Below are positions 23,155 to 39,971 of a stretch of 39,971 bases of DNA, in pieces. The notes under the pieces were generated by a model. That model ran no database searches, was not told the DNA's origin, and saw nothing but the letters and a program-made list of their open reading frames with translations. Each line of letters opens with the position of its first letter. Position 1 is the stretch's first letter. Both the position numbers and the translations under genes were made by a program. Source of the stretch: a virus (taxonomy: Duplodnaviria; Caudoviricetes); the IMG/VR virus record IMGVR_UViG_3300049927_000070, positions 1 to 39,971 of that record. One strand, 5' to 3'.

Positions 23155-23414
23155 AGCTCAAAGGTACATGGAGGTCAAGTCGGTGTCAAGGGTGTCTCGC
23201 AAGGGGTTGACATGGGTGTATGCTAACGAATATTTTTTGGAAATTTGGAGAGCGGGTACCGCGATGGTAAAAGCGGCACCCCCCGATTCGTTTCAAAAAC
23301 ACCGCAACCGCATCCCAGCCGTTCCGCAGACGGCATTGCAAATGTTGCAAAACTTACAAGGCAAGCATGCCGTACGGCCCCGGCCAGCTGGCGAGTCCTC
23401 GGGCGCAGCTTGTC

Positions 23415-23685
23415 AGAGACAAGAGACAAGAGACACAACACTAAGAACTCACACAACACTCACAACACAAGACTCCTACCTAGTCTTGACACAGCCTCAC
23501 ACAGAGGCACACTCACGAGCCTCACAACAGAGGCACACAGAGCACCACCTACACACAGCCCTGACACAGAGCTACACACAACCTCACACAGAGACACAGT
23601 GACAGAGCCTCACACTCCACCTCCTACAGCCAAGGCCTACACAGCCCTCACACCCACCACCTACACAAGACACAACACACAAAGA
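23415..23685 (+). repeat. Strand-biased CA-rich low-complexity tract (CACACAGAG/CTCACAC units)
   Basis: About 270 bp dominated by A and C with very little T. Confidence 0.85.
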
Positions 23686-23766
23686 TGTTTCACCCTGCCC
23701 TTGCAACCCACTAGACAGGGGTGTATATTTAGAGGTGTAGGCAGGACAACCCCACAGGAGCACACC

Positions 23767-24228
23767 ATGAATATTCACACCAAGATTGCGAAGGCCGTTT
23801 TCTACTACGTTGCAATTCTTGCAGCCGTCGTTTCGTTGGCCGTCCTAAATAATCACCCGACAAACGTAGCCGTCCAGCAGCCGGTAAAATCTTCAGCCGG
23901 AATTTCGCAGCCCGTCGACCCAGCCGGTACCGACACCTCCACAGCAGCGGACGCCGGAATTATTAAGGCCTCCCAAACCTGCGCCGATCAAGGCTACCTC
24001 GGATGCTCTGACGACGTCAGAGACTACTGGGCAAAGGACGCATATAACGCCTACGCCGCCCCTATTGGTGGCACCTCACGCGCCGATATCCTCAAGGGTT
24101 TCGTGGCCTCATACGAGGGCAGCTACACCGGCCCCGTCAACTGGGGACCAACCTACCTGAACGTACGGTCCTTGACCTCACCAGATGTCTATCACGTCTT
24201 CCACGTGATCCAGCCTCGCAACGCCTAG
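23767..24228 (+). CDS. Membrane-anchored exported protein (WAKDAY...YHVF family)
   Basis: AGGAG SD; N-terminal TM helix; paralogous to 32909-33304. Confidence 0.75.
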   Translation: MNIHTKIAKAVFYYVAILAAVVSLAVLNNHPTNVAVQQPVKSSAGISQPVDPAGTDTSTAADAGIIKASQTCADQGYLGCSDDVRDYWAKDAYNAYAAPIGGTSRADILKGFVASYEGSYTGPVNWGPTYLNVRSLTSPDVYHVFHVIQPRNA

Positions 24229-24235
24229 CCCGACA

Positions 24236-24260
24236 GCCCCCGTCGAAAGACGGGGGTTCT
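24236..24260 (+). terminator. Intrinsic terminator
   Basis: GCCCCCGTC-GAAA-GACGGGGGT hairpin after the stop. Confidence 0.65.
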
Positions 24261-24288
24261 GTAATTCTTGCAAAGGACACCACCCAAC

Positions 24289-24813
24289 ATGAACACCACA
24301 GCAGCCCGTCGACACGCTCGCAACCTCATGATCAAGCATGGTCTGTCAGCATGGCGCCTCGACTTCATGAATAACACCAAGACAGCAGCCCTCACACACT
24401 TCAAGAAACACCTCATAGAGCTCTCCGTCGAGTTCACCCAAGCCTACGATCAAGAGCAGCTTACGCAGCTTGTCCTCCACGAGATTGCCCACGCGTACAG
24501 GGGACGGGGCAAGGAGCACGCCCATGACGAGCGCTGGCTATTCATTGCCCGCCTCATTGGCTACACCGGGGACGAGTGCATGCCAGCCGACTACCCCACC
24601 CCCAAAATAGTCTGGGATATCGTCTGCACCACTACTGGCCTAATCCAGCAAGTCCACACAGCACCCGACGCCGCCGATTGCAAAAATTGCAATTCCGAGC
24701 ATTGCACCCCCATTGTCCAGCGTCGCCAGATAGTCCGGGCCGACCTCCACACCATCCCTACCCCACCACACATCGCAGCCCGAGCAATCCGGAAACTGTT
24801 CCGTCGCCCTTGA
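24289..24813 (+). CDS. SprT-like zinc metalloprotease
   Basis: IELS...LVLHEIAHA...HDERW...IG and C-terminal Cys pairs. Confidence 0.85.
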   Translation: MNTTAARRHARNLMIKHGLSAWRLDFMNNTKTAALTHFKKHLIELSVEFTQAYDQEQLTQLVLHEIAHAYRGRGKEHAHDERWLFIARLIGYTGDECMPADYPTPKIVWDIVCTTTGLIQQVHTAPDAADCKNCNSEHCTPIVQRRQIVRADLHTIPTPPHIAARAIRKLFRRP

Positions 24814-24868
24814 CACTCCACCCCAGCCCCCATATTGTTGGTACACCACCAACAATCGAAGGAACAAA

Positions 24869-24985
24869 GTGGAAACGCTCGCTATCATCCCCGCCCTGTT
24901 CGCCCTCACCACTCTCACACTCGGAGCAACAGCCCTAGCCGTCGTCGGCCTCGCACTAAGGATCTACGCAGCGTTCACCGCCTAA
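24869..24985 (+). CDS. 38-aa membrane peptide
   Basis: GAAGGA SD, GTG start, hydrophobic; TTGACA promoter at 24810. Confidence 0.55.
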   Translation: METLAIIPALFALTTLTLGATALAVVGLALRIYAAFTA

Positions 24986-24997
24986 CCACCTAACAAG

Positions 24998-25028
24998 TCC
25001 CGGCCCAACCAGCCGGGATTTTTCTTTG
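24998..25028 (+). terminator. Intrinsic terminator
   Basis: TCCCGGC-N7-GCCGGGA followed by TTTTTCTTT. Confidence 0.75.
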
Positions 25029-25031
25029 CCT

Positions 25032-25081
25032 ACTAGTTGACAACTGTGTATCTAACCCATAGACTTGATACATCAGCAAGA
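25032..25081 (+). promoter_or_regulatory. Promoter/leader cassette, identical 50-bp copy 1
   Basis: TTGACA-N17-TAGACT; identical to 26765-26814. Confidence 0.85.
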
Positions 25082-25104
25082 AACACCCAAGCAAAGGAAC
25101 GATC

Positions 25105-25371
25105 ATGAACATCGCAACCCTCGTCGCAGTCACAGGAAACCAGCACGGCGGCGGGCTCGGAACCGTGATCGGCCTTGCAATTGTTGCAATCGTCGTCCTA
25201 GTTGCCGGTGTCCGGTTCACCATCCTCGACATCATCGACAATCGGGCACGCAAAATTGGTGACGCCGTCTACGCCGAAATGAGGGCGGAAAATGACCCCA
25301 AGCTCGCCCGTGACTGGCAGCTGTTCGCCGCTGAATACCAAGCCCGACTCGCAGCAAGACGTGCCAAGTAG
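25105..25371 (+). CDS. Membrane protein
   Basis: AAAGGA SD; one TM helix. Confidence 0.7.
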   Translation: MNIATLVAVTGNQHGGGLGTVIGLAIVAIVVLVAGVRFTILDIIDNRARKIGDAVYAEMRAENDPKLARDWQLFAAEYQARLAARRAK

Positions 25372-25503
25372 TTTGACAACTGTATATCTTTAGTGCAATA
25401 ATTAATACATCAGCAAGAAACACAGACATACGGAGTGATTCAGATGATGAAACGCAGTCTTGCACACGAAAACCTCAGGTTCCACGCAAACAAAGGACAC
25501 ACA

Positions 25504-25887
25504 ATGGACTTCACCTCAGCTGCCCAGATCCTCGTTTCTGCCACCCTCGCCGAAGGTGGGGCGACTATGAACCCCAAGACGCTCACCCTTGAGACCACCC
25601 CCGTAACCCTCGTCGGAGGTGCAACCGACATCACGGGCAACCGAGTCCCTGAGACCTCCATCCCCGTGGATGACTTCACCGAAGAATTCGCAGCCGAATA
25701 CATCCGGCGTATGTCAGTCCTCGCCCGTGATTCCTACATCGGAACGTGGATCGAAAACGGCCTAGTCATCCTCGACGCAGCCGACGCCTTTGAGTCCCTC
25801 AACGCCGCTATGTTCATTGCAACGGAGCGCGGCGAACGTGCCGTGTACACCATCGGAGTTGGCGAAACAGTAGTCCAGTACGCCTAA
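25504..25887 (+). CDS. Hypothetical protein
   Basis: AAAGGA SD; GGAT...YIGTW...LD...GERAVY pattern. Confidence 0.7.
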   Translation: MDFTSAAQILVSATLAEGGATMNPKTLTLETTPVTLVGGATDITGNRVPETSIPVDDFTEEFAAEYIRRMSVLARDSYIGTWIENGLVILDAADAFESLNAAMFIATERGERAVYTIGVGETVVQYA

Positions 25888-25898
25888 CCCTACCTGCA

Positions 25899-25930
25899 AG
25901 GCCCGTCACCTAAGTGGCGGGCTTTTGCTT
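25899..25930 (+). terminator. Intrinsic terminator
   Basis: GCCCGTCAC-CTAA-GTGGCGGGC followed by TTTT. Confidence 0.7.
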
Positions 25931-26016
25931 TGCCCTAAAGCATCTATTGACAAGTGTGTATCTATGCCTCATACTGAATACAGAGCAGCAAACCACAGCA
26001 AACAAAGGATCAAGCC

Positions 26017-26769
26017 ATGCGTATCGTCCCCACCCTCGCAGCAGTCGCAGTAGCTACCACCCTCGCGCTGACCGGTTGCACCACCTCAACACCTACCACC
26101 CCGGCCCCCACTCGCGAGTCCTCCACCACAGCCCCGATTGCTCGCCCCACAGCAACACCTACCCCCACACCCACGCCGTCCACCACCCCGGCCCCCGTAG
26201 CCGCCCCACTGGATACGATCACGGCCCCTACATGCCAAGAGGATGAGCCGTGTTGGGATTGCACAACCATGGGAAACCTCACCTGTGGCCAGACCGCCGA
26301 ACCTCTTGCAAACTCTGCGGCGAACACCCCGGCAATCGCCGTCCCCCAGCCCGTAGCTGCCCCTGTCCCGGCCCCTCAGCCCGTCAAGGTCCAGACACCC
26401 ACCCCAGCCGCTACTAAGCCCGTACAGACACAGCCAGCACCCAGCCTCGCACCTCTAACGTATGAGCAGCGCGTAGCACTGTGTGGCAAGATTGCAGCCC
26501 CTGAAAAGTCCCCGTACTGCGTCGATATCAAGGACACACGGATCGACACCCCGGCCATTCGTCAAGACGCCCTTGCAAATCTTGCAATCGGCTGGACCAC
26601 TGACCTCACGTCCGTAGAGTTGCGCGAGACCTTCCGAGACACCTACCTCCGCTCCGACTCTGCGGCCCCGGCAACCCAGCCCGGAACGATCATTGTAAAA
26701 TCTGCAATGACCCCCAACGTCTGGCACACCTTCAAGCTCAACCGCGACACAGCCTTCAAACAGCACTAG
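26017..26769 (+). CDS. Lipoprotein with Pro/Thr-rich linkers and a CQEDEPCWDCTTMGNLTCG motif
   Basis: Signal peptide with LTGC lipobox; own TTGACA promoter at about 25947. Confidence 0.8.
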   Translation: MRIVPTLAAVAVATTLALTGCTTSTPTTPAPTRESSTTAPIARPTATPTPTPTPSTTPAPVAAPLDTITAPTCQEDEPCWDCTTMGNLTCGQTAEPLANSAANTPAIAVPQPVAAPVPAPQPVKVQTPTPAATKPVQTQPAPSLAPLTYEQRVALCGKIAAPEKSPYCVDIKDTRIDTPAIRQDALANLAIGWTTDLTSVELRETFRDTYLRSDSAAPATQPGTIIVKSAMTPNVWHTFKLNRDTAFKQH

Positions 26770-26814
26770 TTGACAACTGTGTATCTAACCCATAGACTTG
26801 ATACATCAGCAAGA
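26765..26814 (+). promoter_or_regulatory. Promoter/leader cassette, identical 50-bp copy 2
   Basis: Identical to 25032-25081. Confidence 0.85.
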
Positions 26815-26833
26815 CACCACAAAGGAGCACGAA

Positions 26834-27085
26834 ATGACCACCCTGAATCGCGACCAAATCATCTCCGTAGGCCACTCCCTCCCGGCAATCATGGAATACA
26901 TGGAAGCAGCTGAGGTCACCGTCACCCTGACCCACACCACCCTCAAGGGCGAACCTCGCGCCCACCTCGACCCCACTAACGGAAACACCCTCACGATCGT
27001 CGACAAGCGCCACGGCGAAGTCGAGCTCTTCTCCCACAAATACAATAACTTCCTCCCTCACAACCTCGTGAACATCCGCTTCTAG
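26834..27085 (+). CDS. Hypothetical protein
   Basis: AAAGGAG SD; followed by a terminator hairpin at about 27099-27130. Confidence 0.7.
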   Translation: MTTLNRDQIISVGHSLPAIMEYMEAAEVTVTLTHTTLKGEPRAHLDPTNGNTLTIVDKRHGEVELFSHKYNNFLPHNLVNIRF

Positions 27086-27210
27086 TCAAGCCCCGAGAAT
27101 CCCCGGTCACCATGGCCGGGGATTTTCTTTTGCCCAACAGTTGACAAGTGTGTATCCCAGGTCTTAGACTGATTACACAAGCAAGGAATACCCCGAACAA
27201 AGGAACTGAA

Positions 27211-27510
27211 ATGACCGCCTCCAAGATCACCGTCACCGAAGGTTTCTACCTCGTCAACGCAGGCGCATTCAAGGTCACCCGCAGCAAGGAGTCAGGCCGA
27301 CTCTACGCAAAGAAGCTCGACCTCGACACCGGCAAGTTCGAATATGACAAGGGCGCAATCTTCAACCTCCGCCCCGAGACCCGGATGACCAAGGAGCAGG
27401 CAGCAGCCTACGGGCGCGAGACCGGGATCTGCATGATTTGCAACCGGACTCTCACAGACCCTAAGTCCATCGCACAGGGTATCGGCCCCATCTGCATCAA
27501 AGGCTTCTAA
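27211..27510 (+). CDS. DUF6011-like Zn-ribbon protein
   Basis: YGRETGICMICNRTLTDPKSIAQGIGPIC motif. Confidence 0.8.
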   Translation: MTASKITVTEGFYLVNAGAFKVTRSKESGRLYAKKLDLDTGKFEYDKGAIFNLRPETRMTKEQAAAYGRETGICMICNRTLTDPKSIAQGIGPICIKGF

Positions 27511-27517
27511 CCCACAA

Positions 27518-27556
27518 GAAAAGCCCCGGCTACCGAGAGGTAGACCGGGGCATTTC
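27518..27556. terminator. Terminator at the convergence point of the plus and minus early genes
   Basis: GCCCCGG-CTACC-GAGA-GGTAG-ACCGGGGC hairpin flanked by A and T runs. Confidence 0.7.
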
Positions 27557-27566
27557 GTCGTCTCAG

Positions 27567-27716
27567 CTAGGGCGTCAACACGGCCTCAGCCAGCAGCAGC
27601 ACCACAGCCAGTGTCACCAGATACTGTGCGGCACCCCAGTCACCCAGTACGGCGAACACTCCGGACGTCACCACCAACACGCTTGCAAAAATTGCAAACC
27701 AGCGAACCCTACTCAT
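27567..27716 (-). CDS. Small membrane protein (about 49 aa)
   Basis: MSRVRWFAIFASVLVV...; hydrophobic; AAGGA SD. Confidence 0.5.
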   Translation of the reverse strand: MSRVRWFAIFASVLVVTSGVFAVLGDWGAAQYLVTLAVVLLLAEAVLTP

Positions 27717-28185
27717 TCGGCGCTTCCTTCATGAGGCCTTCGTAAAAGCTCTCGTCGTCTTCGTCCTCAAGGGACCATTCACTCTGTAGTCCCCACGCCC
27801 GGTCACGCGGCCCGGTCTCTTCCGTAGGCCCGTCGTCAACCGCCAGCATCTTGACCCACACACCCATGGTTGCGGAGTGCCATGTCTCTCCACGCGCAGC
27901 CGTCAGGGCCGTCTTGAAGTTATCGTAGTTCAGGTAGTTCAGTACCTCGAATTGCAGGAACAGAACGAACGTGGCCTTGCTGACCGTCACGCGCCAGCGA
28001 TAGTCGCCGGGTACTGTCACAATCTCCGGACGATCAAACACCTCGCCGTTTGCATTTCCTGCAAGCTCGATACCCTCAAGCATTGTTTCCAAGCTCTGAC
28101 GGTCACGCGCTCGGACCATGACCAGATCCTCATTGTCCCGGTGCTGCACGGCGGACACAAAGCCGCCACTCGTAAATACCCACAT
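27709..28185 (-). CDS. Conserved hypothetical protein
   Basis: MWVFTSGGFVSAV...VRAR...DYRWR...YDNFK; AAGGAG SD. Confidence 0.75.
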   Translation of the reverse strand: MWVFTSGGFVSAVQHRDNEDLVMVRARDRQSLETMLEGIELAGNANGEVFDRPEIVTVPGDYRWRVTVSKATFVLFLQFEVLNYLNYDNFKTALTAARGETWHSATMGVWVKMLAVDDGPTEETGPRDRAWGLQSEWSLEDEDDESFYEGLMKEAPNE

Positions 28186-28306
28186 ATCAATCTCCTTTGT
28201 CGTTGGTAGATCCTTCGATCTCTCCTTTAAGCATACCACTTAACCTACACAATGTCCACCCCTACAAAAACAAAAGCCACCCGAAGGTGGCCGTTGTCAA
28301 GGTGTC

Positions 28307-28714
28307 TTAGCCTTTGGCGGGAGTCTCCACCGATACAGGGGCAGCAGACACAGCAGCGGAGTCCGACGTCACGACGTCAGCAGTAGGGGCAACAGCGTCC
28401 GTCACAGCGGCACCAGAGCCTTTAGGCGCTACGCCGATGTTAGCCTCGACGTTAGTGGCCAGAGACTTCAAGAGCGTATTATACACAGCTTGCTGGAGTC
28501 CGTAGACAATCGGGAACGCATAGGCCAGATTAGTCCAGTCGGAGATGCCCCCGGTCATAACCTCATACACTACAGCGATTGCAAGACTTACAATCATTGC
28601 AATCGAGTTCTTCGTACGGGAAGACATAGCCGAGTGTGTGAAGACAGACGTGAGCAGCGGAGAAGCGACGACTACCAGAGCCGTCACAACATTAAGCAAT
28701 ACAGTTGTGTCCAT
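28307..28714 (-). CDS. Holin-like membrane protein
   Basis: Three predicted TM helices and a polar tail; followed by a terminator at 28266-28292. Confidence 0.6.
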   Translation of the reverse strand: MDTTVLLNVVTALVVVASPLLTSVFTHSAMSSRTKNSIAMIVSLAIAVVYEVMTGGISDWTNLAYAFPIVYGLQQAVYNTLLKSLATNVEANIGVAPKGSGAAVTDAVAPTADVVTSDSAAVSAAPVSVETPAKG

Positions 28715-28722
28715 AACTTTCC

Positions 28723-29046
28723 TTAGGGTTTTACGATACTTGTTAGAGCGGTGGCTTCATTCGGAACGGTCGCGGCCTTGGTAGGGTCAGCTGTAATCTG
28801 GGCAGCTGCTCCGCAAGCCTCGACATGGTCCTTGTAAAAATTGTAAGTTTTGCAAGCATCCGCCAGAGCCGGGGCGATCGTCGCCGAGTTGTTCACCGCG
28901 ACGTCGGCCTGTTGAGTCGAGCTAGCTATCTGGGCTACAGATCCCAATCCACCAAACAAGAGCAAGGCAAAGGCAAAGTACAAAAGCTTTGTCCGCTTGA
29001 CCATTAGAGCCGTACCCAAGGCCTCAAGTTCACTGTGAATACCCAT
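28723..29046 (-). CDS. Single-TM membrane protein with a Cys pair
   Basis: One TM helix, then C-x11-C. Confidence 0.65.
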   Translation of the reverse strand: MGIHSELEALGTALMVKRTKLLYFAFALLLFGGLGSVAQIASSTQQADVAVNNSATIAPALADACKTYNFYKDHVEACGAAAQITADPTKAATVPNEATALTSIVKP

Positions 29047-29048
29047 AG

Positions 29049-29399
29049 CTAGTCCGATTCTTTCGACCGTTTGATTTTGCGAAGCTGATCGAGCAAGTCC
29101 TCAGCGCGCCTAGATTCATTATACGCTTTGTCTTCTAGACCTCTGTTGGCTGCACGGAAGCGATCAAACTCTTCCTCTTTTTCGTCGAGCTCTGCCTGTA
29201 GCGCATCAATGCGAGTCTGCAAGGCCTCTTTGTCTTTTTGCAATCTTTGCAACGACGAAACAAGCTCACTACGTAGTCCGGCCTCAGACCTACGCAGATA
29301 GTAAAAGAGCATCAGCACACCGCCCAAAAGCGACGTCGGATATCCCGCCGGACCAACGGCGGAGAGAAAAGCGCTGACCCCCTCAAACACCTTATCCAC
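29049..29399 (-). CDS. TM plus coiled-coil protein
   Basis: GTG start after a GAGGGGGTGAGG SD-like stretch; hydrophobic N-terminus and long heptad region. Confidence 0.65.
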   Translation of the reverse strand: MDKVFEGVSAFLSAVGPAGYPTSLLGGVLMLFYYLRRSEAGLRSELVSSLQRLQKDKEALQTRIDALQAELDEKEEEFDRFRAANRGLEDKAYNESRRAEDLLDQLRKIKRSKESD

Positions 29400-29588
29400 A
29401 GCCTCACCCCCTCTGAAACAAAAATAGCCGTCGACATGATTTGTCGGACGGCGTAATTGAAAGTATATCAGAAAAAGCGAGAGACCTGCGTCACAATGAG
29501 AAAAGCTGAACGGGGATTCGATCACCCGTTCAGCCCTCTTTGTTGGTTTATGTAATTATGATAGCAGCATATACAGCCGCCAGACAAG

Positions 29589-29771
29589 CTACGGCGTGAT
29601 CAAACTTGCCAGCAGCCCCAAAACCAAGGCCACTCCGATTAGTGAAAGCTGACCCTGTGTCGTGTCAATCCAGCGATTGAGCTTCGACAGAGTTTCCTGA
29701 ACCCGTGTCTGCACCGCTCCCAGACGTTCCGCGTTATCCCGCTTGCGATTCCTGCCAGCTGCGTTGCTCAT
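29589..29771 (-). CDS. Small protein with C-terminal TM helix
   Basis: AAAGGAG SD and conserved leader. Confidence 0.65.
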   Translation of the reverse strand: MSNAAGRNRKRDNAERLGAVQTRVQETLSKLNRWIDTTQGQLSLIGVALVLGLLASLITP

Positions 29772-29822
29772 GTCATTCTCCTTTGTTGGTACTCTAAGTA
29801 TACACACCCAGAGCCGGCATGT

Positions 29823-30158
29823 CTAGTCCGTTGTTTGTGCTGCGATGATGTAATCATAATCAGCAGCGGTCATTGCCGCCTTGAAGTAGCCGCGCACAAT
29901 CTTGCCATACTCCACACCCTCACGGTCAAAGAAGACTGTGAAGAGTGCGGCCTCTAGCATGTCAAGCTGTGCCGACGACGTGGACAGATCCATTGCCTCG
30001 TTGGGCCGGATGGCACTCGGTACGCCTCCGACGGCGAGCCGTTCCTCGTTGAGCTTCATGTCGGATTGAATCCGCTCACAAGCTGTGCGGTAAACTCTCG
30101 CAGCCCTTGCGACCAGATTCAAGAAATGCGCTTGCTCTTTGGTGATCGGCAGTTCCAT
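29823..30158 (-). CDS. Hypothetical protein
   Basis: AAAGGAG SD. Confidence 0.7.
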   Translation of the reverse strand: MELPITKEQAHFLNLVARAARVYRTACERIQSDMKLNEERLAVGGVPSAIRPNEAMDLSTSSAQLDMLEAALFTVFFDREGVEYGKIVRGYFKAAMTAADYDYIIAAQTTD

Positions 30159-30256
30159 GACGTCTCCTTTGTGATTGGTAGTACTAGTCGTGTAGGCTCA
30201 AAGAGCAGCCCGGATCATTGTCCCCCATGATGGTCCGGGCTGCACCTTTGCAATTT

Positions 30257-30559: not shown

Positions 30560-30600
30560 GGTCTGTGTCCTTTGCTTTGTTGGTACTCTAAGCATAAGGC

Positions 30601-30801
30601 CTAAGGTATAACGTTGTCAAGTCTTTTCTTGGGCGCGATGTATGGCGTGAATTCCATGCCCCGGTCAGCCAACGCCCTCGACCCTGCATGCCCACACTCA
30701 CAAGCGCAGTCCCGCGTCGCAAAGTGTTCCGGACACTTGTCGTGCTCTTCTGTGTTCCACTCCGTCACGGGCAGCTTCATACACCAGCCAGACCTATCCA
30801 C
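30601..30801 (-). CDS. Small Cys-rich protein
   Basis: SGWC...HDKC...CACECGH. Confidence 0.6.
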   Translation of the reverse strand: MDRSGWCMKLPVTEWNTEEHDKCPEHFATRDCACECGHAGSRALADRGMEFTPYIAPKKRLDNVIP

Positions 30802-32420: not shown

Positions 32421-32912
32421 CTAGCGCATCTTGAGTTTTGTCGGCTTTGGCGGTTTAGCGAAAGCATACTGTGTCGCTTGTGAGACCGTCAGGATCAACG
32501 GCTTGGCCGTCGTCGCCTTAGTCGTCTTGGACTTCGACGGCTGCTTTATTTTTGCCGACTGCTGCTTCGCTTGCTTGGGTTGCTTGGGCTGTTTGAGAGC
32601 TTTCGTTTTTGCAACTTTTGCAATGGTGACCCCGGCTTTGAGCAGGACCGTGGAGCTATGCACCGGGACATTCTGTGTTGTGTCCGTTGCCTTAGCCCGC
32701 GCGGTATCCTTGAATCCGCCGTGGAGCAATTGGTATAGGTCACCCTTACCTGATGCAGGTGGCTTGATCTTGTGGTGACTAGGGGACGGCTCTACGGGCG
32801 CACCAGTCAGGCTGTAGCTCTGGTCCTCCGGTACCGGTTCAGCGGCCAGAGCCGGGGCAGCTACGCCGCTAAGCGCTAGCGTCACTGCTGCTATTGCAGC
32901 GAGCCGCCTCAA
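32421..32912 (-). CDS. Secreted Lys-rich protein
   Basis: Signal peptide ending ALA-A; K/Q/A/P-rich tail. Confidence 0.7.
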   Translation of the reverse strand: MRRLAAIAAVTLALSGVAAPALAAEPVPEDQSYSLTGAPVEPSPSHHKIKPPASGKGDLYQLLHGGFKDTARAKATDTTQNVPVHSSTVLLKAGVTIAKVAKTKALKQPKQPKQAKQQSAKIKQPSKSKTTKATTAKPLILTVSQATQYAFAKPPKPTKLKMR

Positions 32913-33304
32913 CCGTTCACCGCCGTATCTGCGGCATCCGTCACCGTGGAGTCCACCGGGTTACCGGGCACCACCACAAAGACGTGGTAAGTGTTTTCGT
33001 ACTTGTCGGAGGGCACCACGGCATAACCGTCGCCCCACTCCGGTGCAGTGTCATAAGTCCCGTAGTACGTCGCCGTAAAGGCATCCTTGACATCCTGCTC
33101 CGGCATATCCTTCACCGTGGACTTGAAGGTCTCATAGGCATCCTTCGCCCAGAAGTCGGCGTAGGCCGTCTTGCACGTCGAGTCCTTCGACGGATCGCAG
33201 TCCGATGCAACAATGTCCGAACTACTCGGAACGCTTGCCGCGACGGATACCCCGCCGATAGCGAGTGCAGCGGACAATACCGCGCTTGCAATATTTACAA
33301 TCAT
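32909..33304 (-). CDS. Exported protein (WAKDAY...YHVF family)
   Basis: Signal peptide; paralogous to 23767-24228. Confidence 0.75.
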   Translation of the reverse strand: MIVNIASAVLSAALAIGGVSVAASVPSSSDIVASDCDPSKDSTCKTAYADFWAKDAYETFKSTVKDMPEQDVKDAFTATYYGTYDTAPEWGDGYAVVPSDKYENTYHVFVVVPGNPVDSTVTDAADTAVNG

Positions 33305-33538
33305 TTAGATGTCCTCTTTCAGAATCATGGTTGCGAGTTGGTCAAGTTGGTTGCGGGACAGAGACAGAGTGTCAAGAAGTTCCCGCGCCGCCCTGAGTCC
33401 GTCGAGGTGTTCTCCGTAGCAAGCTTCGGATACCCGTCGAGCCTCATCTTCGTCCGGATATGAGACAAGCGCGTGGGGTAAGTCATCCGCTAACCATTGC
33501 TCAAGCGTAGGTACGTCCATTGCGTTTCCAAGTTCCAT
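33305..33538 (-). CDS. Hypothetical protein
   Basis: AAAGGAG SD before MELGNAMDV. Confidence 0.65.
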   Translation of the reverse strand: MELGNAMDVPTLEQWLADDLPHALVSYPDEDEARRVSEACYGEHLDGLRAARELLDTLSLSRNQLDQLATMILKEDI

Positions 33539-33563
33539 GACTACTCCTTTGTAAGTTTTACAA

Positions 33564-33836
33564 TTACGGCGCGCAGTCTTCGCAACGCCGGTCATAGCAT
33601 CCAGTGCACCATCCGTGTTCACGGCATCCGGCAACGGGCGTACCGTTAGGTACTTCGATAACCGTTCCGTCGCACTCCGCATCCGTACACGCGTTGCCGA
33701 TATCCGTCACGCTGTAATCATCGTCGCCACACGTGTCGCAGTCGTAGCGCGAGTCGCACTCACACTCGGGCGCATAGGACGGTTCCATGTTCTCCCATGC
33801 CCGTTGCGCGCTTGCGAATCCCGGAATGCTGTTCAT
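33564..33836 (-). CDS. Cys-rich Zn-binding protein
   Basis: CEC, CDTC, C..AEC, CREH, CTGC and CEDC; own promoter. Confidence 0.7.
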   Translation of the reverse strand: MNSIPGFASAQRAWENMEPSYAPECECDSRYDCDTCGDDDYSVTDIGNACTDAECDGTVIEVPNGTPVAGCREHGWCTGCYDRRCEDCAP

Positions 33837-33912
33837 GGTGACTCCTTCGTTGTTGGTAATACCAGTCTAGGGCCTAACATATATGTTTGTCAAGCCCTAG
33901 ACTAGACTAGTT

Positions 33913-34545
33913 CTACTCGCCAGCAAGGCCCTTGAGTCGTCGCCATACAGTCCACGTAACGGCTTGTAGCTGGCAGGGCGAGATATCCAGCCCGGTCTCA
34001 GTTTCAATCGTCTTAGCGGCCCGTACGTAGGCCCGTGCGAACTGGTCATAGACGCCCTTGCGAGACAGAGCCGTCCGTGACTTGTCGTTAGTGATCCGGC
34101 CTACCGCGATATCAAACGCGTGGCGGTCAATCACTACGGCAGAGCCGTCGTGCGGATCAGCGATAGCCTTGTAAAAATTGCAAACCTTGTTGCCGCCCAG
34201 CACGTCGAGCGGTTCAGAACCGGCCATGATCGCGTCCGCCTTGGCACAGTTGGCATACAGACCGCCCGATGCGTAGCCGTCCGCGTAGGCCCGTACAGCC
34301 ATGTTCACATTCTTACCCCACGTCTTCATGGGAGATAGCGCGGCGAGTACCCCGGCAGCTGCATGGGGCCGTTCCGGATCGAGGGCCACGGCCAGCTTGT
34401 GTGCGTCAAGGTACCAGTCCAAACCGTCTTGCAATTCTTGCAACGTCGCTTGACGGTAGACGTCAAGGATGCGCGCCGCGTTAGGCTTGGCTGCGTACAC
34501 TACGTTGCGCGGTTCGGTCAGGGTGTTGTCAAGGCGGAAGACCAT
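33913..34545 (-). CDS. Conserved phage protein, possibly HhH-GPD glycosylase-like fold
   Basis: GLDWY, GVLAALSP..W..N, GNKVCNFY, VVIDRHA and QLQAVTWTVWR motifs. Confidence 0.7.
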   Translation of the reverse strand: MVFRLDNTLTEPRNVVYAAKPNAARILDVYRQATLQELQDGLDWYLDAHKLAVALDPERPHAAAGVLAALSPMKTWGKNVNMAVRAYADGYASGGLYANCAKADAIMAGSEPLDVLGGNKVCNFYKAIADPHDGSAVVIDRHAFDIAVGRITNDKSRTALSRKGVYDQFARAYVRAAKTIETETGLDISPCQLQAVTWTVWRRLKGLAGE

Positions 34546-34729
34546 TGCAGTTCCTTTGTTCGTTGGTAGTTACTACTATACACGCTTGCCTAGTCTTTTG
34601 CAAACTGTATCAACATTACGTACAAACACATAGGCCCCGCCGCAGCTAGACGTTCGCTAGCTAAACGACGGGGCACAGATCCCTACGTTGCGTTGAGGGC
34701 AAACGCCGGGTGATCAAGCCGGAGTTCAA

Positions 34730-34927
34730 TTACTTGACGTTGACCACCTTGAGCCGGTTAGCGTAGCGCACGATCACCTTGAGGCCTAGGCGGTCCGCGT
34801 CTTGCTTGTTGGTGTAGCTGCCCGTGGAGGTCTCACGGAAGTCTTTGCCCTCGGCCCATGCCGCCTTGACTTCCTTCTGGTTCTTGTAGTCCCGGCCATA
34901 CGCGGGCTCAACTTCAATCCAAGTCAT
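34730..34927 (-). CDS. Hypothetical early protein
   Basis: PAYGRDYK..KEVKAAWAEGKDF; own promoter (TTGACA at about 34980-34985). Confidence 0.75.
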   Translation of the reverse strand: MTWIEVEPAYGRDYKNQKEVKAAWAEGKDFRETSTGSYTNKQDADRLGLKVIVRYANRLKVVNVK

Positions 34928-35000
34928 GGTAACTCCTTTGTTGTTGGTGTACTACAATTCTAAGCCTAGGGTATATGCTTGTCAAGCTCTACCCGTTCCA

Positions 35001-35405
35001 TTAGTTTTCTTCGACCCCGGCCCATTCCAAAAGCTGTACGTCTCCCGGCTCTATGAATTCTACGAGCGACTGCAATTCTGCTATCTCAGAGTAGCTGATC
35101 GTCTCGGCCTCAATTTGGCTGCGCAGGTACTTCAAGCGTTGCTGTACGTCAGTCGGCTGGACGGTTGCCCGTTGGATAAACTCGGGCATCTTGCCGTCGG
35201 CGTTGAGGCGCATGCTCACGGCCCGAACAGCTTCACCTAGGGTCAGTTCGTCATAGAACCGGCCAATCCAGTGGGTGACGGCCACAGAGTCGCCAGTCGC
35301 CATCTTTGCGCCCTCGGCCAATGCCTTGAGTCCGTCAAGGTATCCGAACACGTGGACGGTTTCGTCCGTCTCGGAGTGGACTGTAATCAAGTGTGCAGTG
35401 AACAT
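35001..35405 (-). CDS. Hypothetical early protein
   Basis: C-terminal RLKYLRSQIEAETISYSEIAELQSL...LLEWAGV; own promoter at 35433-35462. Confidence 0.75.
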   Translation of the reverse strand: MFTAHLITVHSETDETVHVFGYLDGLKALAEGAKMATGDSVAVTHWIGRFYDELTLGEAVRAVSMRLNADGKMPEFIQRATVQPTDVQQRLKYLRSQIEAETISYSEIAELQSLVEFIEPGDVQLLEWAGVEEN

Positions 35406-35462
35406 TTTGTGCCCTTCGTTGTTGGTACTCTAAGCATAAGGCCTAAGGTATATGCTTGTCAA

Positions 35463-35744
35463 CTACTCGACGGTGACGTGTGCAGCGTAGGACCAGTCTT
35501 CGCCGGTCTCCAGATTCATACGGGAGTCTTCCGCGTAGTAAGTCCAGTCACCATTGTCGACGACTGATCCAATTGCGTCTTCGATAAATTCCGCCGCGTC
35601 ATCGATGTTATCGAATTCGAAGGTGCGAACGTCTTCCGGCTCGCTCCGGAGTTCGAAAGAGTTCCAGTTGGGGTCCACCCACCCATTGAACGTCTCTTCC
35701 GTGTCGGGGTTGAAAACATCTGCGGTGAACTTGACCTTGACCAT
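35463..35744 (-). CDS. Acidic hypothetical early protein
   Basis: AGGAG SD before MVKVKF; D/E-rich. Confidence 0.7.
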   Translation of the reverse strand: MVKVKFTADVFNPDTEETFNGWVDPNWNSFELRSEPEDVRTFEFDNIDDAAEFIEDAIGSVVDNGDWTYYAEDSRMNLETGEDWSYAAHVTVE

Positions 35745-35807
35745 TGTGACTCCTAAGTTGTTGGTAGTACTAGTCTGGGGCATAAGATACAAGCTTGTCA
35801 AGCCCTA

Positions 35808-35942
35808 CTACAGAGCAAACACTTCATAGTAGACGTGCGAGCAATTGGTGTTGAGACGTTCGCAAGCTTGCTCTGCTTCCGGCTTAGTGGCGTACTTGAA
35901 GGTCAAAGATATGCGAGACGTGATGTGTACGAGACCAAACAT
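35808..35942 (-). CDS. 44-aa hypothetical protein
   Basis: GAAGGAG SD; MFGLVHITSRISLTFKYATKPEAEQACERLN... Confidence 0.55.
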   Translation of the reverse strand: MFGLVHITSRISLTFKYATKPEAEQACERLNTNCSHVYYEVFAL

Positions 35943-36258
35943 GGGAACCACTCCTTCGGAAGCTCAAGCTGCGTTGCTTGATACTTCTAGAATACATGTA
36001 TGTCTACAGATTAGCAATACCGTTTCAGAAAAAAGATTCTTTGGTTTTGGGGTTGACACGCGCTGTATATGCTGGCATGATTGAGGTATGAACAAAAACA
36101 AGGATCCGCCGGACGGGGACAAAGAGTAGGGGGTGAGCCCCTGACATCGGCCCTGACGCGGGGTCGGGGGGAAGGCCGAATCTGGGCTCCGCCCTAGGGG
36201 GGGGGCTGGCCGGGGAACGCGCCCTAGGCATCGCCCACAGCGCTGGCCGCGCGCCCTG

Positions 36259-36482
36259 CGAGGGTATGTCGATTAGCGCTAGAGGGGGTATGTCGATGCG
36301 AGGGTGTGTCGATTAGTGAGGGTAGGGCGTTGCGAGCCTATGTCGATTCCGGCCCCTAGAGGGTATGTCGATTCAGGGGGGCCTAGCGAGGGTGTGGCGA
36401 TTTACCTTAGAGGGTATGTCAAATCAGGCCCTGCGAGGGTATGTCAATTTCGGCCACACCCCTTGCGAGGGTATGTCAATTT
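36259..36482 (+). repeat. Array of about 9 GAGGGTATGTC(G/A)AT repeats
   Basis: Copies at about 36260, 36285, 36300, 36334, 36359, 36388, 36410, 36435 and 36467, several degenerate. Confidence 0.85.
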
Positions 36483-36541
36483 CAGGTCGAGGATGTATGT
36501 ATATGCAGACTTGGTGCAGTGTATGGATATTCAGACATGAG

Positions 36542-36670
36542 CTAGAAGGTCCAGTACTTGGGGTCATAGCCCTTCACGAAGAAGCACTTCCAGATCTTGA
36601 CGACCTGCTTGTAGTAGAAGACTGCTAGAAAGAGTACGGGGTTATAGTTCCAGTCGAGCCATTTCTTCAT
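36542..36670 (-). CDS. 42-aa aromatic-rich peptide
   Basis: AAAGGA SD; TTGACA(36726-36731)...TATACT promoter. Confidence 0.55.
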   Translation of the reverse strand: MKKWLDWNYNPVLFLAVFYYKQVVKIWKCFFVKGYDPKYWTF

Positions 36671-36889
36671 GGTGTTTGTATCCTTTCGTTGATATACCTC
36701 TAGTATAGGCTACATCATACAAGGATGTCAAGTACCATCTGTTGTTGCATATATGCACAGGTGTGTATAGTTTTGCGTATATGCAACCAGCTGTTGCAAC
36801 TTTTGCAAGGACTGACGAGACTGCGAGCGCCGAGCTTTATCTGATCCCTATAAAGCTGGAGCCCTCGGGACCATGCCCCGTATTCTCCA

Positions 36890-37131
36890 CCGCATCGAAA
36901 ATAGGAGCCGCATACCGCACCGCATCGACCGCATGCCTTTTAGCCGCACCGCATCGATTTTACGCGACCGCACCGCATCCGCATCGAAAAAAGCATGCTT
37001 ACCGCACCGCATGCCCGTAAGGAGGGTGACCCTCCTCCTACCGCACCGCATGCTTTTCACGACCGCATGCCCCTGACCGCATCCGCATCGTCCCGGAGGG
37101 TCACCGCATCGCCTTGACCGCATCAACCGCA
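36890..37131 (+). repeat. Array of 20 CCGCA(C/T) pentamer repeats
   Basis: I counted 20 CCGCA in about 240 bp, often as ACCGCACCGCATG/CG. Confidence 0.9.
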
Positions 37132-37172
37132 CCACATAGGCTTGAGTTGTCGGGTGGTTGAGAACCTGAGAC

Positions 37173-37209
37173 ACAACGAACTCTCCGGTATTTCCGGAGA
37201 GTTCGTTGT
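37173..37209. terminator. Strong hairpin, likely terminator
   Basis: Perfect 16-bp stem ACAACGAACTCTCCGG / CCGGAGAGTTCGTTGT with a 5-nt loop. Confidence 0.75.
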
Positions 37210-37220
37210 TTTTGCAAAAC

Positions 37221-37601
37221 TTACAACAGGCTGATCATGACTTCCTGCAAGGGCATCGTGATCTTCTCGGACGGGACAGCTGCGAACAGCGCCTTGCCGA
37301 TCCGGGAGCTCGAAGGGTCCCCGTGGATGAAGACGATCTCGTCGGAGTCGTTGGCGAGCGCGGCGAACATCTCCGCGAAGTCGACGTGTCCCTCGGCGGT
37401 CTGCTCGTACTCGAAGACGTTCATGGCGTGATCCGGCACGATGTATCGTACGGCCCGCTCCACACCCATGGCGAGGTTGCCGGTGGCCACGGAGAGGTCT
37501 CCGTTGTTCTGGACGATGAGGTCCTTGATGACGGCATCAACTGCGCCGACGGCGATGACGAGATCCATGGAACGGTCACCTGTGATGAAGATCTTTTTCA
37601 T
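37221..37601 (-). CDS. Divergent SLOG-like Rossmannoid protein
   Basis: KIFITGDRS...ATGNLAMGVERAV resembles the SLOG TGxR...GxAxGxD pattern; AAGGAG SD. Confidence 0.6.
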   Translation of the reverse strand: MKKIFITGDRSMDLVIAVGAVDAVIKDLIVQNNGDLSVATGNLAMGVERAVRYIVPDHAMNVFEYEQTAEGHVDFAEMFAALANDSDEIVFIHGDPSSSRIGKALFAAVPSEKITMPLQEVMISLL

Positions 37602-37642
37602 AGTGTTTCTCCTTTTGTTATCGTTTGTTATTTTTGTAAAAC

Positions 37643-38170
37643 TTACAACGCGCCGAGCGCGGTCGGGTCCTGACGAACCTTGCGCAGGTTGGCGATCCAG
37701 TGTCTCTGCATCTCCATGCACTCGAAGACTTCGAACGTCTTCTCGGACTTCGGATAGGCCAGCCTGTAGAGGGCGTAGGCGTCCTCGGTCAGCTGCTTCT
37801 CCTCGGCGCTGTTGCGCTCGCGGATGATCATTGCGGCCCGGAGATTGATTACGGCTATCGCCAGAGCAGCATCCACGTAGGCTGGGTCGGAGTCTGGGTC
37901 GGAGAGGATCTGATCCGCCCGCCGCTGGGCGGTACTCTCCACAGCATCAGTCACGCGCCCCACTCCGAGGACTGCGATGGCCATGGCAAGGTTGTCTTCG
38001 GTCTTGGCTGGGAAGACAACCAGATCTTTATCTCCGGTGAGCGATAGCTTAGTGATCTCAATCGAGGAGACGTTGGTGCGCTTGACGTCCTCGTTCCGGA
38101 AATTGATCTCCAGTCCGGCGAGAGGGGACCGGAACTGATTCGTGAGGCCGAGTTCTTCAAACTTTTCCAT
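37643..38170 (-). CDS. Hypothetical protein
   Basis: 175 aa; AAGGAG SD. Confidence 0.75.
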   Translation of the reverse strand: MEKFEELGLTNQFRSPLAGLEINFRNEDVKRTNVSSIEITKLSLTGDKDLVVFPAKTEDNLAMAIAVLGVGRVTDAVESTAQRRADQILSDPDSDPAYVDAALAIAVINLRAAMIIRERNSAEEKQLTEDAYALYRLAYPKSEKTFEVFECMEMQRHWIANLRKVRQDPTALGAL

Positions 38171-38182
38171 AGTGTATCTCCT

Positions 38183-38455
38183 TTAGTTGGCGGGGTTGCG
38201 GAGGGCGTTGTCTGCGCGAGAGACGCGCATGCCGTGCTTGGCGAGGATGGCGTCAATCTTGAGAGAGTCGACGGTCTGGTTGGCCTCATCGATCTGCTCC
38301 CAGAACAAGACGTACGCCCGCTGGAGTTCGGCGATCTCTCGGTCCTTGTTGGCGAAGACTTGGTTGGTCGCCCACTCGGACTGCTTCGCGTTGGCCGTGA
38401 AGATGTCGGCGAGGAGGGAGTTGAAGGGCATCTGTTCTGGTTCGTTGATCGGCAT
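38183..38455 (-). CDS. Hypothetical protein (leaderless)
   Basis: TTGACA(38485-38490)-N17-TATGCT-N6-ATG. Confidence 0.7.
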   Translation of the reverse strand: MPINEPEQMPFNSLLADIFTANAKQSEWATNQVFANKDREIAELQRAYVLFWEQIDEANQTVDSLKIDAILAKHGMRVSRADNALRNPAN

Positions 38456-38827
38456 ATACTAAGCATACATGGGTGTCGAACCTGTGTCAACAAGAAAGCC
38501 GTGAGTTCTGCTAAGTCTTCCGAACTGGACAGGGGGTCTCACGGCCTCTTGTCCCAACCTGTGACAACTGGTGAGGCTGGGAGTATTGAGTTATGTACGC
38601 AGCCTAGCATGCGCGAGGGCAAAAGAAAACCCAGCCTCAAGGGAATGTGGGGCTGGGGTCTCTCGTACTGCTCTAGCGGTACACTTTGAATAACTTAGAC
38701 ACCTCTAGTATATACCAATGATGGACAAAAGAAAACCCAGCCCCCGTTCGCAAAGGGCTGGGCTTCCTTGGATGCGTGGTCTCGACATCCTACCAGCCCC
38801 GGGGTAGTGGTTGCTGGTGGCTACAGA

Positions 38828-39448
38828 CTAAACGCTGGGTTCTTCGGCGTCAACGATTTCGCCGAGATCTTCGGGTTCGTCGGCCTTCGTGATGCGTGCT
38901 GCCATGCCCTTGAGTTTTTCAGCGATCGTGTCCGCCGCGCTCATGGTGTGTTCGACATGGACTGTGAGGTCAGGTGCGCCCTTGACTCCGGCACGGTCGA
39001 GGATCTCGGTTGCTGCCTTGAGACGTACAGCTGCTTGCGTTCCGGGATTGGTCACGAGGTCTTCGATGGCATCGATGGCGTCATCGGTCAGGCCGATCAT
39101 CCGCATGCGTGCTGCTTCGACTACGGCTTGGGCGTGCTCCTTGACGGATGGCAGGTGTCCGCCATGTTGTAGGCAGACGGTCGCACCACGTAGGCTCCAC
39201 TTCGGACAGCGCTCACCTTTGCGATCACCATTACGCACAATGCCAGTGCACCGTACGACCGGGACTGGTTCAGCCACGGTTGGCTTCCACCCCATCGGAA
39301 CGTTCAGGCCCTGTTCACCAGCCGAGTTCTTGCCAGCGCTTCGGGATGTGGTTACCACCCCATCGATAGCGTCTAGTGTCGGCGGCGCGTCCTCAAAAGG
39401 ATCGGTAATCATGATAGCTCCATGTGGCGTTTGCTCTATAAGGTTCAC
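38828..39448 (-). CDS. Probable terminase small subunit (HGGxSTG-like Zn finger plus helical domain)
   Basis: RCTG...ERC...VCLQHGG followed by AIDAIEDLV...VRLKAATEILDRAG. Confidence 0.65.
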   Translation of the reverse strand: MNLIEQTPHGAIMITDPFEDAPPTLDAIDGVVTTSRSAGKNSAGEQGLNVPMGWKPTVAEPVPVVRCTGIVRNGDRKGERCPKWSLRGATVCLQHGGHLPSVKEHAQAVVEAARMRMIGLTDDAIDAIEDLVTNPGTQAAVRLKAATEILDRAGVKGAPDLTVHVEHTMSAADTIAEKLKGMAARITKADEPEDLGEIVDAEEPSV

Positions 39449-39971
39449 CTTAAAGTATACACTTAAGGAGTATCTTGTTGTATGGACAAGTATATATGAT
39501 AAAGGTCCTATTATGGAGATTAGACGACTTGTGGTCCGACTCCCCTTCGACCACTACATGTAGTAGTTACCTCGGCTTCTTACCATTGTGGATAAACACC
39601 ATCGCCACACGCCGCACCGGCATGTACATTGCCGAACCTAGCCAGCGTGACGCACGCCAACTCTCAGACCGTCCGATCAGATACGAGAACCGCCCGGTAT
39701 CAAACTGCGGGCGCAAGGGAATCATCTCGTGCGTGCACCCCTGCTTGTTCCACCGCCGCTGCGCTCTTGTCCTCTTCATCGTACCGGCCCAACTTCAGTC
39801 GCATTGTCAGCTAGTCGAAATATCTTTTTGCAAGATTTACAGATGTAGCGCGTATCCACCGCAATCATCTGCACAAGGGAATACACCCAACACGGTCGGC
39901 ACGTCGGCCACAACACAGTATGCTCGCAGTGAGGGCAGGACACCTTAACGTATATCTCGGCCTCGTGGTCG

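Follow-up and report, generated by a model that had tools for sequence, protein, structure and literature searches.

The putative terminal repeat

In a DNA of 39,971 nucleotides from a soil phage (Caudoviricetes; IMG/VR record IMGVR_UViG_3300049927_000070), referred to as the window, a short palindromic site, TTGYAA-N3-TTRCAA, recurs many times in the right-hand part, inside genes as well as between them. It is possible, with a joint probability of roughly 0.42, that these sites are bound by a phage-encoded protein with two predicted helix-turn-helix (HTH) domains, which would coat the early module in the direct terminal repeat (DTR) of the phage and shut its promoters for the host polymerase; all functional steps of this reading are inferred. 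The record is estimated to be 22% complete. Its portal protein and the product of a gene at 38,828-39,448 (- strand) are about 50% identical to those of the Arthrobacter phages Racecar, Mimi, Talia1610 and Atuin, whose genomes have 192-194 kb, and by these comparisons the window is a fragment of a phage of about 190 kb that is related to Racecar and Atuin.

Exact direct terminal repeats are present in Racecar (20,468 bp), Atuin (17,312 bp) and the Microbacterium phage Big4 (17,669 bp), and each of them begins just before a homologue of the gene at 38,828-39,448, which is the first DTR gene of the relatives, encodes a terminase-small-subunit-like protein, and is called gene 1 in the following. 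The outer DTR end of the window was placed just upstream of this gene, at about 39,550, and the inner ends of both the Racecar and the Atuin DTR align to window position 23,259, which is 77 bp past the last cluster of sites. In X1, the only run with this DNA and a possible source of the record, contigs break at 39,544-39,571, where the depth falls from 17.2 to 6.6, and contig depth, which is not the same as copy number, is 10-17 inside the stretch and 9.6 and 6.6 outside. Because of the gene-1 position, the end alignment at 23,259 and, more weakly, the contig break with its drop in depth, it is very likely that the motif-bearing stretch is a long terminal repeat, extending from about 23,259 to about 39,560 (about 16.3 kb, ends approximate). 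The preliminary description had proposed that the motif marks a region, and the marked region is thus very likely this repeat.

The repeat is full of small genes behind sigma-70-like promoters, of which there are 26 in 22.5-40 kb versus 7.6 in shuffled sequences, about 20 of them within the DTR, and it appears to be an early module for the takeover of the host. No match to sigma-70 region 2 was found in any of five whole genomes of the group. A tyrosine integrase was also not found in five of five genomes, serine integrases and plasmid-type lysogeny not having been part of that search.

A repeated site within the repeat

There are 21 exact matches to the motif in the window, all within 23,336-37,648. 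With up to one mismatch there are 29, and 28 of these lie in 23,336-39,842, the remaining one being found at 18,109, whereas 100 dinucleotide shuffles of the window gave a mean of 0.09 and a maximum of 1. The repetition that had been described earlier is therefore beyond doubt, although the number of about 24 copies has to be raised to 28 for this region, and the near-absence of the motif from the first 23 kb is borne out by the single match there. Three further sites have two mismatches, and of the resulting 32 listed sites, 18 are in open reading frames (ORFs), 4 are on stop codons and 10 are intergenic; the gene list for this tally was picked by hand, and two small genes without sites were removed from it because of faulty coordinates. 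Copies inside ORFs use all three frames and both strands. The motif variant of the window is near-palindromic, and both of its readings are present in genes of either strand.

When codons were shuffled synonymously with the proteins held constant, as had been suggested in the preliminary description, 2000 shuffles gave a mean of 1.17 and a maximum of 5 sites with up to one mismatch in coding sequences, versus 16 that are observed. The DNA that flanks the copies is not common between sites, a tandem-repeat scan of the window detected no array at the motif sites, and matching of the window to Rfam gave 0 matches. The motif is confirmed as a real, non-chance feature of the window. Regular tiling is not supported: the spacing has a mean of 634 bp and a coefficient of variation (CV) of 0.86, there are two gaps of more than 2 kb, and the sites are not significantly more even than random (P 0.32).

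Starting at the inner end of the repeat, the first element is an intergenic triple half-site array with two exact overlapping sites (23,336-23,359), 77 bp inside the likely DTR end. A site with one mismatch follows at 23,810-23,824 in a + strand ORF (peptide VAILAA), and another one at 24,259-24,273 is intergenic and precedes a SprT-like gene, which itself contains an exact site at 24,678-24,692 (DCKNCN). Exact sites are also found in + strand ORFs at 25,175-25,189 (LAIVAI) and 26,573-26,587 (LANLAI), and the peptides reported earlier at these three positions, the first in the shorter form CKNCN, were verified. Then come a site with one mismatch in a + strand ORF (26,693-26,707), a weak one with two mismatches in a DUF6011 ORF (27,429-27,443), an exact one in a small - strand ORF (27,683-27,697, FAIFAS) and again one with two mismatches in a - strand ORF (28,050-28,064). 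Two further triple half-site arrays lie in - strand ORFs at 28,579-28,602 (IAMIVSLAI) and 28,832-28,855 (ACKTYNFYK). All three arrays had been noted before, and two of them each include one overlapping 15-mer with a mismatch. Other exact sites in - strand ORFs are those at 29,238-29,252 (LQRLQ, with TTG for both leucines), 31,307-31,321 (IAKVAT), 32,609-32,623 (IAKVAK) and 33,286-33,300 (codons 2-7), and a DUF7178 ORF contains two, at 34,169-34,183 (VCNFYK) and 34,429-34,443 (LQELQ).

The four sites that overlap TAA stop codons, which are the stops already named in the preliminary description, are exact at 30,248-30,262, where a hairpin comes after the site, at 37,212-37,226, and at 37,625-37,648, where a weak partner overlaps the exact site; the fourth, at 31,715-31,729, has one mismatch and is immediately followed by a terminator-like hairpin. 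Intergenic exact sites form the inner part of a hairpin at 31,019-31,033, are followed by a TTGACA box about 33 bp downstream at 32,385-32,399 and about 62 bp downstream at 36,794-36,808, and stand between a stop codon and the following ribosome-binding site at 33,549-33,563. The outermost site (39,828-39,842, one mismatch) is about 270 bp beyond the position taken as the DTR start.

Conservation of the sites in close relatives

The near-complete relative G001 has 39 matches to the unchanged window pattern, 30 of which are in the syntenic 17 kb of its 158.6 kb, and the fragment G009 has 15 matches to a slightly widened pattern in its syntenic part; four other close fragments, which were found via the gene of the tandem HTH protein, have 0 matches to the widened pattern. 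Where orthologous genes could be aligned, sites are retained with at most one mismatch at 7 of 12 positions in G001 and at 9 of 10 in G009. The sites at 24,678, 28,579, 31,307 and 34,169 are present in both, that at 29,238 is present in G001 and that at 32,609 in G009, and the weak site at 27,429 is better in G009, where it has one mismatch. There is also turnover, as the sites at 25,175 and 28,832 are missing in G001, although one 15-mer of the latter array is kept, and the weak site at 28,050 is not conserved. In phages with other motif variants the site is retained at 0 of 14 aligned positions.

A comparison of synonymous positions, which had been proposed as a check, came out in favor of the sites: identity at synonymous motif positions is 30/38 in G001 versus 58% outside the motif (P 0.006) and 26/29 in G009 versus 58.5% (P 0.0003), with the P values subject to the fact that positions inside one site are not independent. 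Sites are also spaced more evenly than random in G001 (P 0.001) and in G009 (P 0.03). The comparison of synonymous positions and the codon shuffles support selection on the in-gene motif copies. At 34,169 the relatives G002 and G003 have VRAFYG and no site, and the Arg-to-Cys exchange in DUF7178 was considered as a costly substitution; this was dropped, as the position varies across the DUF7178 family.

Variants of the site in related phages

The exact window pattern has 2 matches in Racecar, 0 in Atuin, 0 in Big4 and 0-2 in G002-G004. Variants emerged only with relaxed and unguided searches, and by unguided word enrichment a terminal-repeat word was found in most of the relatives examined. 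This word is AGTTACAAAAMTTGMATAG in Racecar, ACTWACAAAAWTTCGGTAG in Atuin and AGTTACAARAAACGCWTAG in G002 and G003, it begins with AGTTACAAAACTTCA in G011 and with AGTTACAAAASTTTCT in G013, it is TTACAAAASTT with a loose flank in G015, and in G012 it is of the window type. Four Microbacterium phages have an unrelated word, TTTAGTG-N5-ACTCTTGCGT, with 13-16 copies per repeat, and Pumpernickel has a variant of it. In one phage clade there are at least five motif variants.

The words are concentrated in the repeats. Matches to the own motif inside the DTR versus the rest of the genome number 38/5 in Racecar, 23/5 in Atuin, 16/0 in Big4, 36/7 in G001, 54/8 in G003, 34/2 in G011 and 46/12 in G012, where the inside counts are somewhat inflated because each matrix was trained on its DTR (the words were first found unguided), and where the DTR limits of the G genomes are inferred. 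Clusters of sites near the inner DTR end are found in the window (77 bp), Racecar, Atuin, G002 and G003. None of five motif matrices matched in G004 and in the 10.7-kb sequence L096, which shows just a promoter-start word, there are no sites in the 20 kb examined of G016, in which the HTH gene is present, and in the Gordonia phage Forza (83 of 114 kb examined) there is no comparable motif and only a weak match to the HTH family. DSL-LC01 (L117, record positions 22,607-43,303) has 32 early-region copies of CTAAAGNNGTTAT joined to the -10 box of its early-type promoters; these look like a promoter element and were not counted.

Other short words occur in the repeats of some relatives. Palindromes resembling the parS consensus lie near the inner repeat end in Racecar (20,315), Atuin (15,671, 16,195 and 135,565) and G013 (9,631, reversed contig), and no match with up to one mismatch to this consensus was found in the window, nor does it occur in the window clade. 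Three Microbacterium phages have the paired words TTATCCACA and TGTGGATAA just after a motif site, at about 15,940 in L003, 15,340 in L112 and 13,740 in L113, which we take to be DnaA-box-like.

Position of the sites relative to promoters

In five relatives half or more of the sites are linked to promoters. A -35 box, according to a hand-made list of hexamers, is found at most 25 bp downstream of the site in 21 of 38 cases in Racecar, 12 of 23 in Atuin, 34 of 54 in G003, 39 of 54 in G002 and 24 of 34 in G011, which is 52-72% of the copies, whereas the random means are 0.5-2.3 sites. In these lineages the site belongs to a repeated unit of stop codon, site, hairpin and promoter, and sites also stand before the first promoter of an array. 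Site and -35 box are 9-10 bp apart in 71 of the 95 cases that have a hairpin and in 31 of the 50 that lack one; as the gap recurs without a hairpin, the length of the hairpin does not explain the phase. The motif is asymmetric and oriented with transcription in Racecar, Atuin, G002, G003, G011 and G013. G013 and G015 are intermediate in their promoter phasing (5/19 and 5/24). One system is seen in several geometries, promoter-phased and directional or, in the window clade, near-symmetric and in genes, and the portal tree gives no resolved branching of the three Arthrobacter-type lineages.

A tandem helix-turn-helix protein as candidate reader

One and the same host strain (Arthrobacter globiformis) served to isolate Racecar and Atuin, yet their right half-sites differ, and because they carry different variants on one host it is likely that the motif is read by a phage-encoded protein. 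The best candidate, and probably the reader, is a protein of 170 aa with two predicted HTH domains that is encoded at 9,560-10,072 (- strand), directly downstream of a sigma-70-type promoter (TTGACA-16-TATACT, 10,080-10,107, - strand). It is a core, single-copy protein in 8 Arthrobacter-type genomes; the Racecar protein is gp73 and the Atuin protein gp66. Its model has two four-helix domains (mean predicted local confidence, pLDDT, 87; predicted template-modelling score, pTM, 0.52), and in a VIA-align comparison, in which the first domain was barely tested, the second resembles generic HTH domains, the best being KorB (Z 6.0, root-mean-square deviation 2.3, 55 residues); this likeness to the DNA-binding domains of KorB and ParB is at a generic level only. 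Foldseek gave no match of the model to solved structures at E<=0.001. A viral library yielded two matches at E<=0.001, of which one extends over 164 aa with 50% identity, and with one pattern no relative was found in a collection of bacterial genomes.

What makes this protein attractive as reader is the covariation of its second recognition helix with the right half-site. There are five types of this helix, each with its own right half-site: SRRA goes with TTGCAA, SRTA with TTGMAT, SRSA with TTTC (Atuin, G013 and G014), SRSS with ACGC, and SDSS with a shorter or looser flank (G011 and G015). G012, a deep sister with 58% identity in the portal and 51% in the HTH protein, has the same types of both helices together with the TTGCAA motif. 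G010 was left out of this comparison, as its HTH gene is off the contig; it has a short A-tract palindrome with 21 copies in the repeat and 14 outside. In Big4 there are three HTH paralogues, one of which is encoded within the repeat and has a site adjacent to what is likely its -35 box, and in four Microbacterium relatives a paralogue inside the DTR has a site 0-9 bp before the likely -35 box (read by eye). In Big4 this looks like autoregulation and would support the HTH family as reader there.

Possible function of the sites

If the HTH protein reads the sites, early gene expression might be controlled as follows. After entry the host polymerase would transcribe the early genes of the repeat and also the HTH gene, the latter from its own promoter, and the accumulating HTH protein would then bind to the 16-54 sites per repeat and damp the early module. 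It may bind as a monomer, with one domain on each of the half-sites, which are spaced by 9 bp. In the phased, directional lineages the bound protein would act on the polymerase at each promoter, blocking it or trapping it via the alpha subunit. In the window clade, where the site would have turned near-symmetric and shifted into genes and to their ends, the protein could be a roadblock or form a cooperative coat across the region. From the site geometry, such silencing ranks above the coating, protecting or pulling in of DNA, functions that had been considered in the preliminary description.

Several observations speak against this silencing. None of 31 sites in the window is just upstream of a -35 box, and the numbers are similarly low in other sequences of the window clade (3/37, 3/24 and, in G012, 2/46). 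The earlier statements that the motif ignores promoter position and is not a simple operator therefore hold for the window lineage; they do not hold for the five relatives, in which the placement is directional, mostly at 9-10 bp, and links the system to the control of promoters. Of the 16 sites of Big4 a single one is phased, some are in genes, and the spacing is even (1142 bp, CV 0.33), a pattern more in keeping with the marking of a region than with promoter control. There are promoters without sites, several of them at 34.6-36.7 kb of the window, where no site is found between 34,443 and 36,794, and promoter-like boxes without a site also exist outside the DTR (10,107, 12,454, 13,385, 13,664 and 16,940). 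The assignment of the reader has weak points as well: Racecar and G011 have similar sites and differ in both helices, the first helix differs among lineages that share the left half-site, and the pairings of helices and half-sites all follow the portal tree and are thus not independent, and the window clade is likewise set apart by a loop insertion in the zinc finger of the gene-1 protein. In 8 of 8 genomes the 3 kb upstream of the HTH gene are free of sites, and hence show no sign of autoregulation. The HTH gene is located near the portal gene, in Microbacterium phages next to the terminase genes, and this location suits a role in packaging as well.

The last points lead to the main alternative, in which the tandem HTH protein or the gene-1 product handles the genome ends, by coating the DTR for duplication, cutting or packaging, or by protecting or drawing in the DNA that enters first, so that the promoter phasing of some lineages would be secondary. 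Sites fill the DTR and cease at its inner edge, near which they are clustered in the five phages mentioned, and such a function would account for the promoters outside the repeat that have no site; in Big4 each DTR has 16 evenly spaced sites and the other 157 kb have 0, despite early-type promoters outside, the spacing is more even than random in G001 and G009, and the HTH gene lies within the portal/terminase block. All this leaves the fixed 9-10 bp directional phase to the -35 box in five genomes, with or without hairpin, without explanation. Several of the non-DTR sites of Racecar, G002 and G003 again precede promoters, the sites of the directional lineages point with transcription and not to a genome end, and neither the window nor Racecar shows regular spacing. 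Genome-end handling as the primary function is thus rather unlikely, but one protein could serve both silencing and the handling of genome ends. Doubtful, too, is a broader version in which the sites form a private and rapidly evolving address code over the entire repeat, on which one protein would form a nucleoprotein domain that sets the length of the repeat and governs duplication, packaging or entry; such a code would be written even at the cost of codons and residues, and the helices of its cognate two-domain reader would change with it.

The phased lineages can also be looked at from the opposite side, with the bound protein boosting early promoters or holding the polymerase on phage DNA in competition with host promoters. 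Sites at about -46 to -64 with constant phase and direction have the typical geometry of class I activators, and a domain like that of the ADP-ribosyltransferase Alt, which in T4 modifies the alpha subunit of the polymerase, is part of a 2324-aa ORF in the window. The promoters are near consensus, however, and the window clade retains such promoters without an adjoining site; moreover, in-gene sites that are up to hundreds of bases away from a promoter cannot activate in this way, which makes an activator improbable.

It is about as improbable that the sites are read by another phage protein, for which the terminase-like gene-1 protein, a phage WhiB, a DndB-like protein or an unrecognised core protein come into question. 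In a scan of 69 core proteins WhiB and gene 1 were the recognisable candidates, and several core proteins have no family match. Gene 1 is the weaker candidate in comparison with the HTH protein, as its zinc finger is nearly identical in Racecar, Atuin, G003, G010 and G011 despite their different motifs and is not the same in G011 and G015, which agree in the core of the motif. WhiB proteins act through the polymerase at promoters, which does not fit in-gene sites. A DndB-like gene is carried by 7 genomes or fragments whose sites are of the TTACAA or A-tract type and by 0 of 4 window-clade sequences, two of which are near-complete, and its absence from the near-complete G001 and G012, both of which have the motif, argues against a general DndB-like reader.

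That the sites belong to a transcription factor or nucleoid protein of the host and serve as sensor or decoy is very unlikely: the DTRs of relatives do hold sites of host type, parS-like in Racecar, Atuin and G013 and presumably DnaA-box-like in Microbacterium phages, but different variants in Racecar and Atuin on one strain and at least five variants in one clade are not expected of a host factor. Finally, a neutral by-product of copied intergenic promoter-hairpin cassettes, which the repeated unit of the phased lineages would suggest, or a signal at the RNA level can practically be dismissed, being largely refuted already by the conservation of in-gene copies at synonymous positions and their excess over the codon null in all frames and on both strands, with no shared flanks, and, for RNA, by sites before the first promoter of an array, which would not be transcribed.

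Comparison with known systems

The sites may bear on two general problems of lytic phages with repeats of 10-20 kb, the silencing of their numerous strong early promoters and the way in which the repeats are bounded and copied. The literature that was covered, without most subscription papers and supplementary figures, contains no description of the motif or of sites in the DTRs of these phages.

The most similar system are the stoperators of cluster A phages such as L5 and TipsytheTRex. Their repressors are two-domain monomers that bind to more than 20 asymmetric sites and stop elongation (PMC9283540), and their motifs vary along with the repressor (PMC6550527). The phages analysed here likewise have more than 20 short sites in many cases (28 in the window and 16-54 per DTR in relatives), the variants differ between related phages, the proposed reader would be a monomer with two HTH domains, and in the Racecar-type variants the orientation follows transcription. 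Unlike stoperators, the window motif is near-palindromic and has no clear link to direction, and the sites are not spread over the genome in promoters and short intergenic spaces, as described for cluster A, but are concentrated in the DTR, with 18 of 32 inside ORFs. Cluster A phages are temperate, whereas no tyrosine integrase was found here in five of five genomes in the search described above. No cluster A repressor (HTH plus Stoperator domain) was among 7 weak hits (E<=1) of the HTH protein or in the fold lists, an absence that is compatible with kinship. The system may thus work like a stoperator array, but in the window lineage it fails the tests of stoperator orientation and distribution.

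Another precedent is the lytic phage phi29, in which p4, bound upstream of the polymerase, represses an early promoter through contact with the alpha subunit (PMC6524683), and p6 covers the ends of the genome and turns an early promoter off (PMC10899789). The placement upstream of the -35 box in five relatives resembles p4, which the unphased sites of the window do not. In phi29, p4 acts at a few promoters and p6 forms an extended coat, whereas here 16-54 sequence-specific sites tile a repeat of 16-21 kb. Conserved repeated words whose function is not known have been reported from non-structural regions of lytic actinophages (Microbacterium clusters EC, EF, EG, EI; SAS/ESAS); in the part of that report covered here, these repeats have unrelated sequences and 5-12 intergenic copies at a set distance from start codons, and none is described as confined to a long DTR or as lying inside genes (PMC7302621).

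Among further relevant systems, the PeSL cassettes of T4-type phages are reportedly promoter-stem-loop modules, and they resemble the Racecar-type DTRs in their repeated early promoters and hairpins between small genes. The window differs in that its sites stand apart from promoters and hairpins and are located in genes, which a cassette leaves unexplained. Codes of the parS, matS and SlmA type consist of short palindromic sites that are clustered in one chromosomal region regardless of genes. The window sites share this shortness, symmetry, regional restriction and independence of genes, but they have another sequence, are phage-borne and lineage-specific, and are promoter-phased in sister lineages.

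The site and the candidate protein are both defined, and phages that grow on laboratory soil hosts (Racecar, Atuin, Big4 and Cece) make the two of them directly testable. If the map of helices to half-sites is true, the phages would provide a naturally occurring set of small monomeric DNA readers that are orthogonal to one another, and if the sites are an address code, this would be a sequence code for the biology of long terminal repeats.

Other features of the repeat and its surroundings

Directly after the portal gene of the window, the 2324-aa ORF mentioned above (3-6,974, - strand, open at its end) has a part that is head-maturation-protease-like and also matches ADP-ribosyltransferase families, including the Alt-like one; the Racecar and Atuin annotations give a DNA helicase for the gene in this position. 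The DndB-like gene (Pfam PF14072) is located in or near the repeat, at 1,985-3,634 in L001 and 1,600-3,102 in L002.

In the repeat of the window, three genes for membrane or coiled-coil proteins (28,307-29,525, - strand) are conserved in relatives and hold five sites. One of them has weak spanin matches, and the trio is possibly a lysis cassette. Convergent sigma-70-like promoters at 32,176 (+) and 32,351 (-) flank about 120 bp with the complementary ends GAAGTATGAAGCGGA and TCCGCTTCATACCTC, partly conserved in G002, which is a candidate for a sense/antisense pair of small RNAs. A small RNA may also be encoded at 36,084-36,231 (+), where a promoter at 36,053 is followed by about 50 bp (36,125-36,184) that are 85% conserved in G001, G003 and Racecar and have no Rfam match. 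Between this promoter and a gene that ends near 36,541, a gene-free stretch (36,230-36,500) contains, by eye, about nine imperfect copies of GAGGGTATGTCRAT and could be origin-like or a second binding array. A run of ATGCGG/GTGCGG hexamers on the - strand occupies the gene-poor positions 36,870-37,090, and similar words are enriched in the repeat of Atuin.

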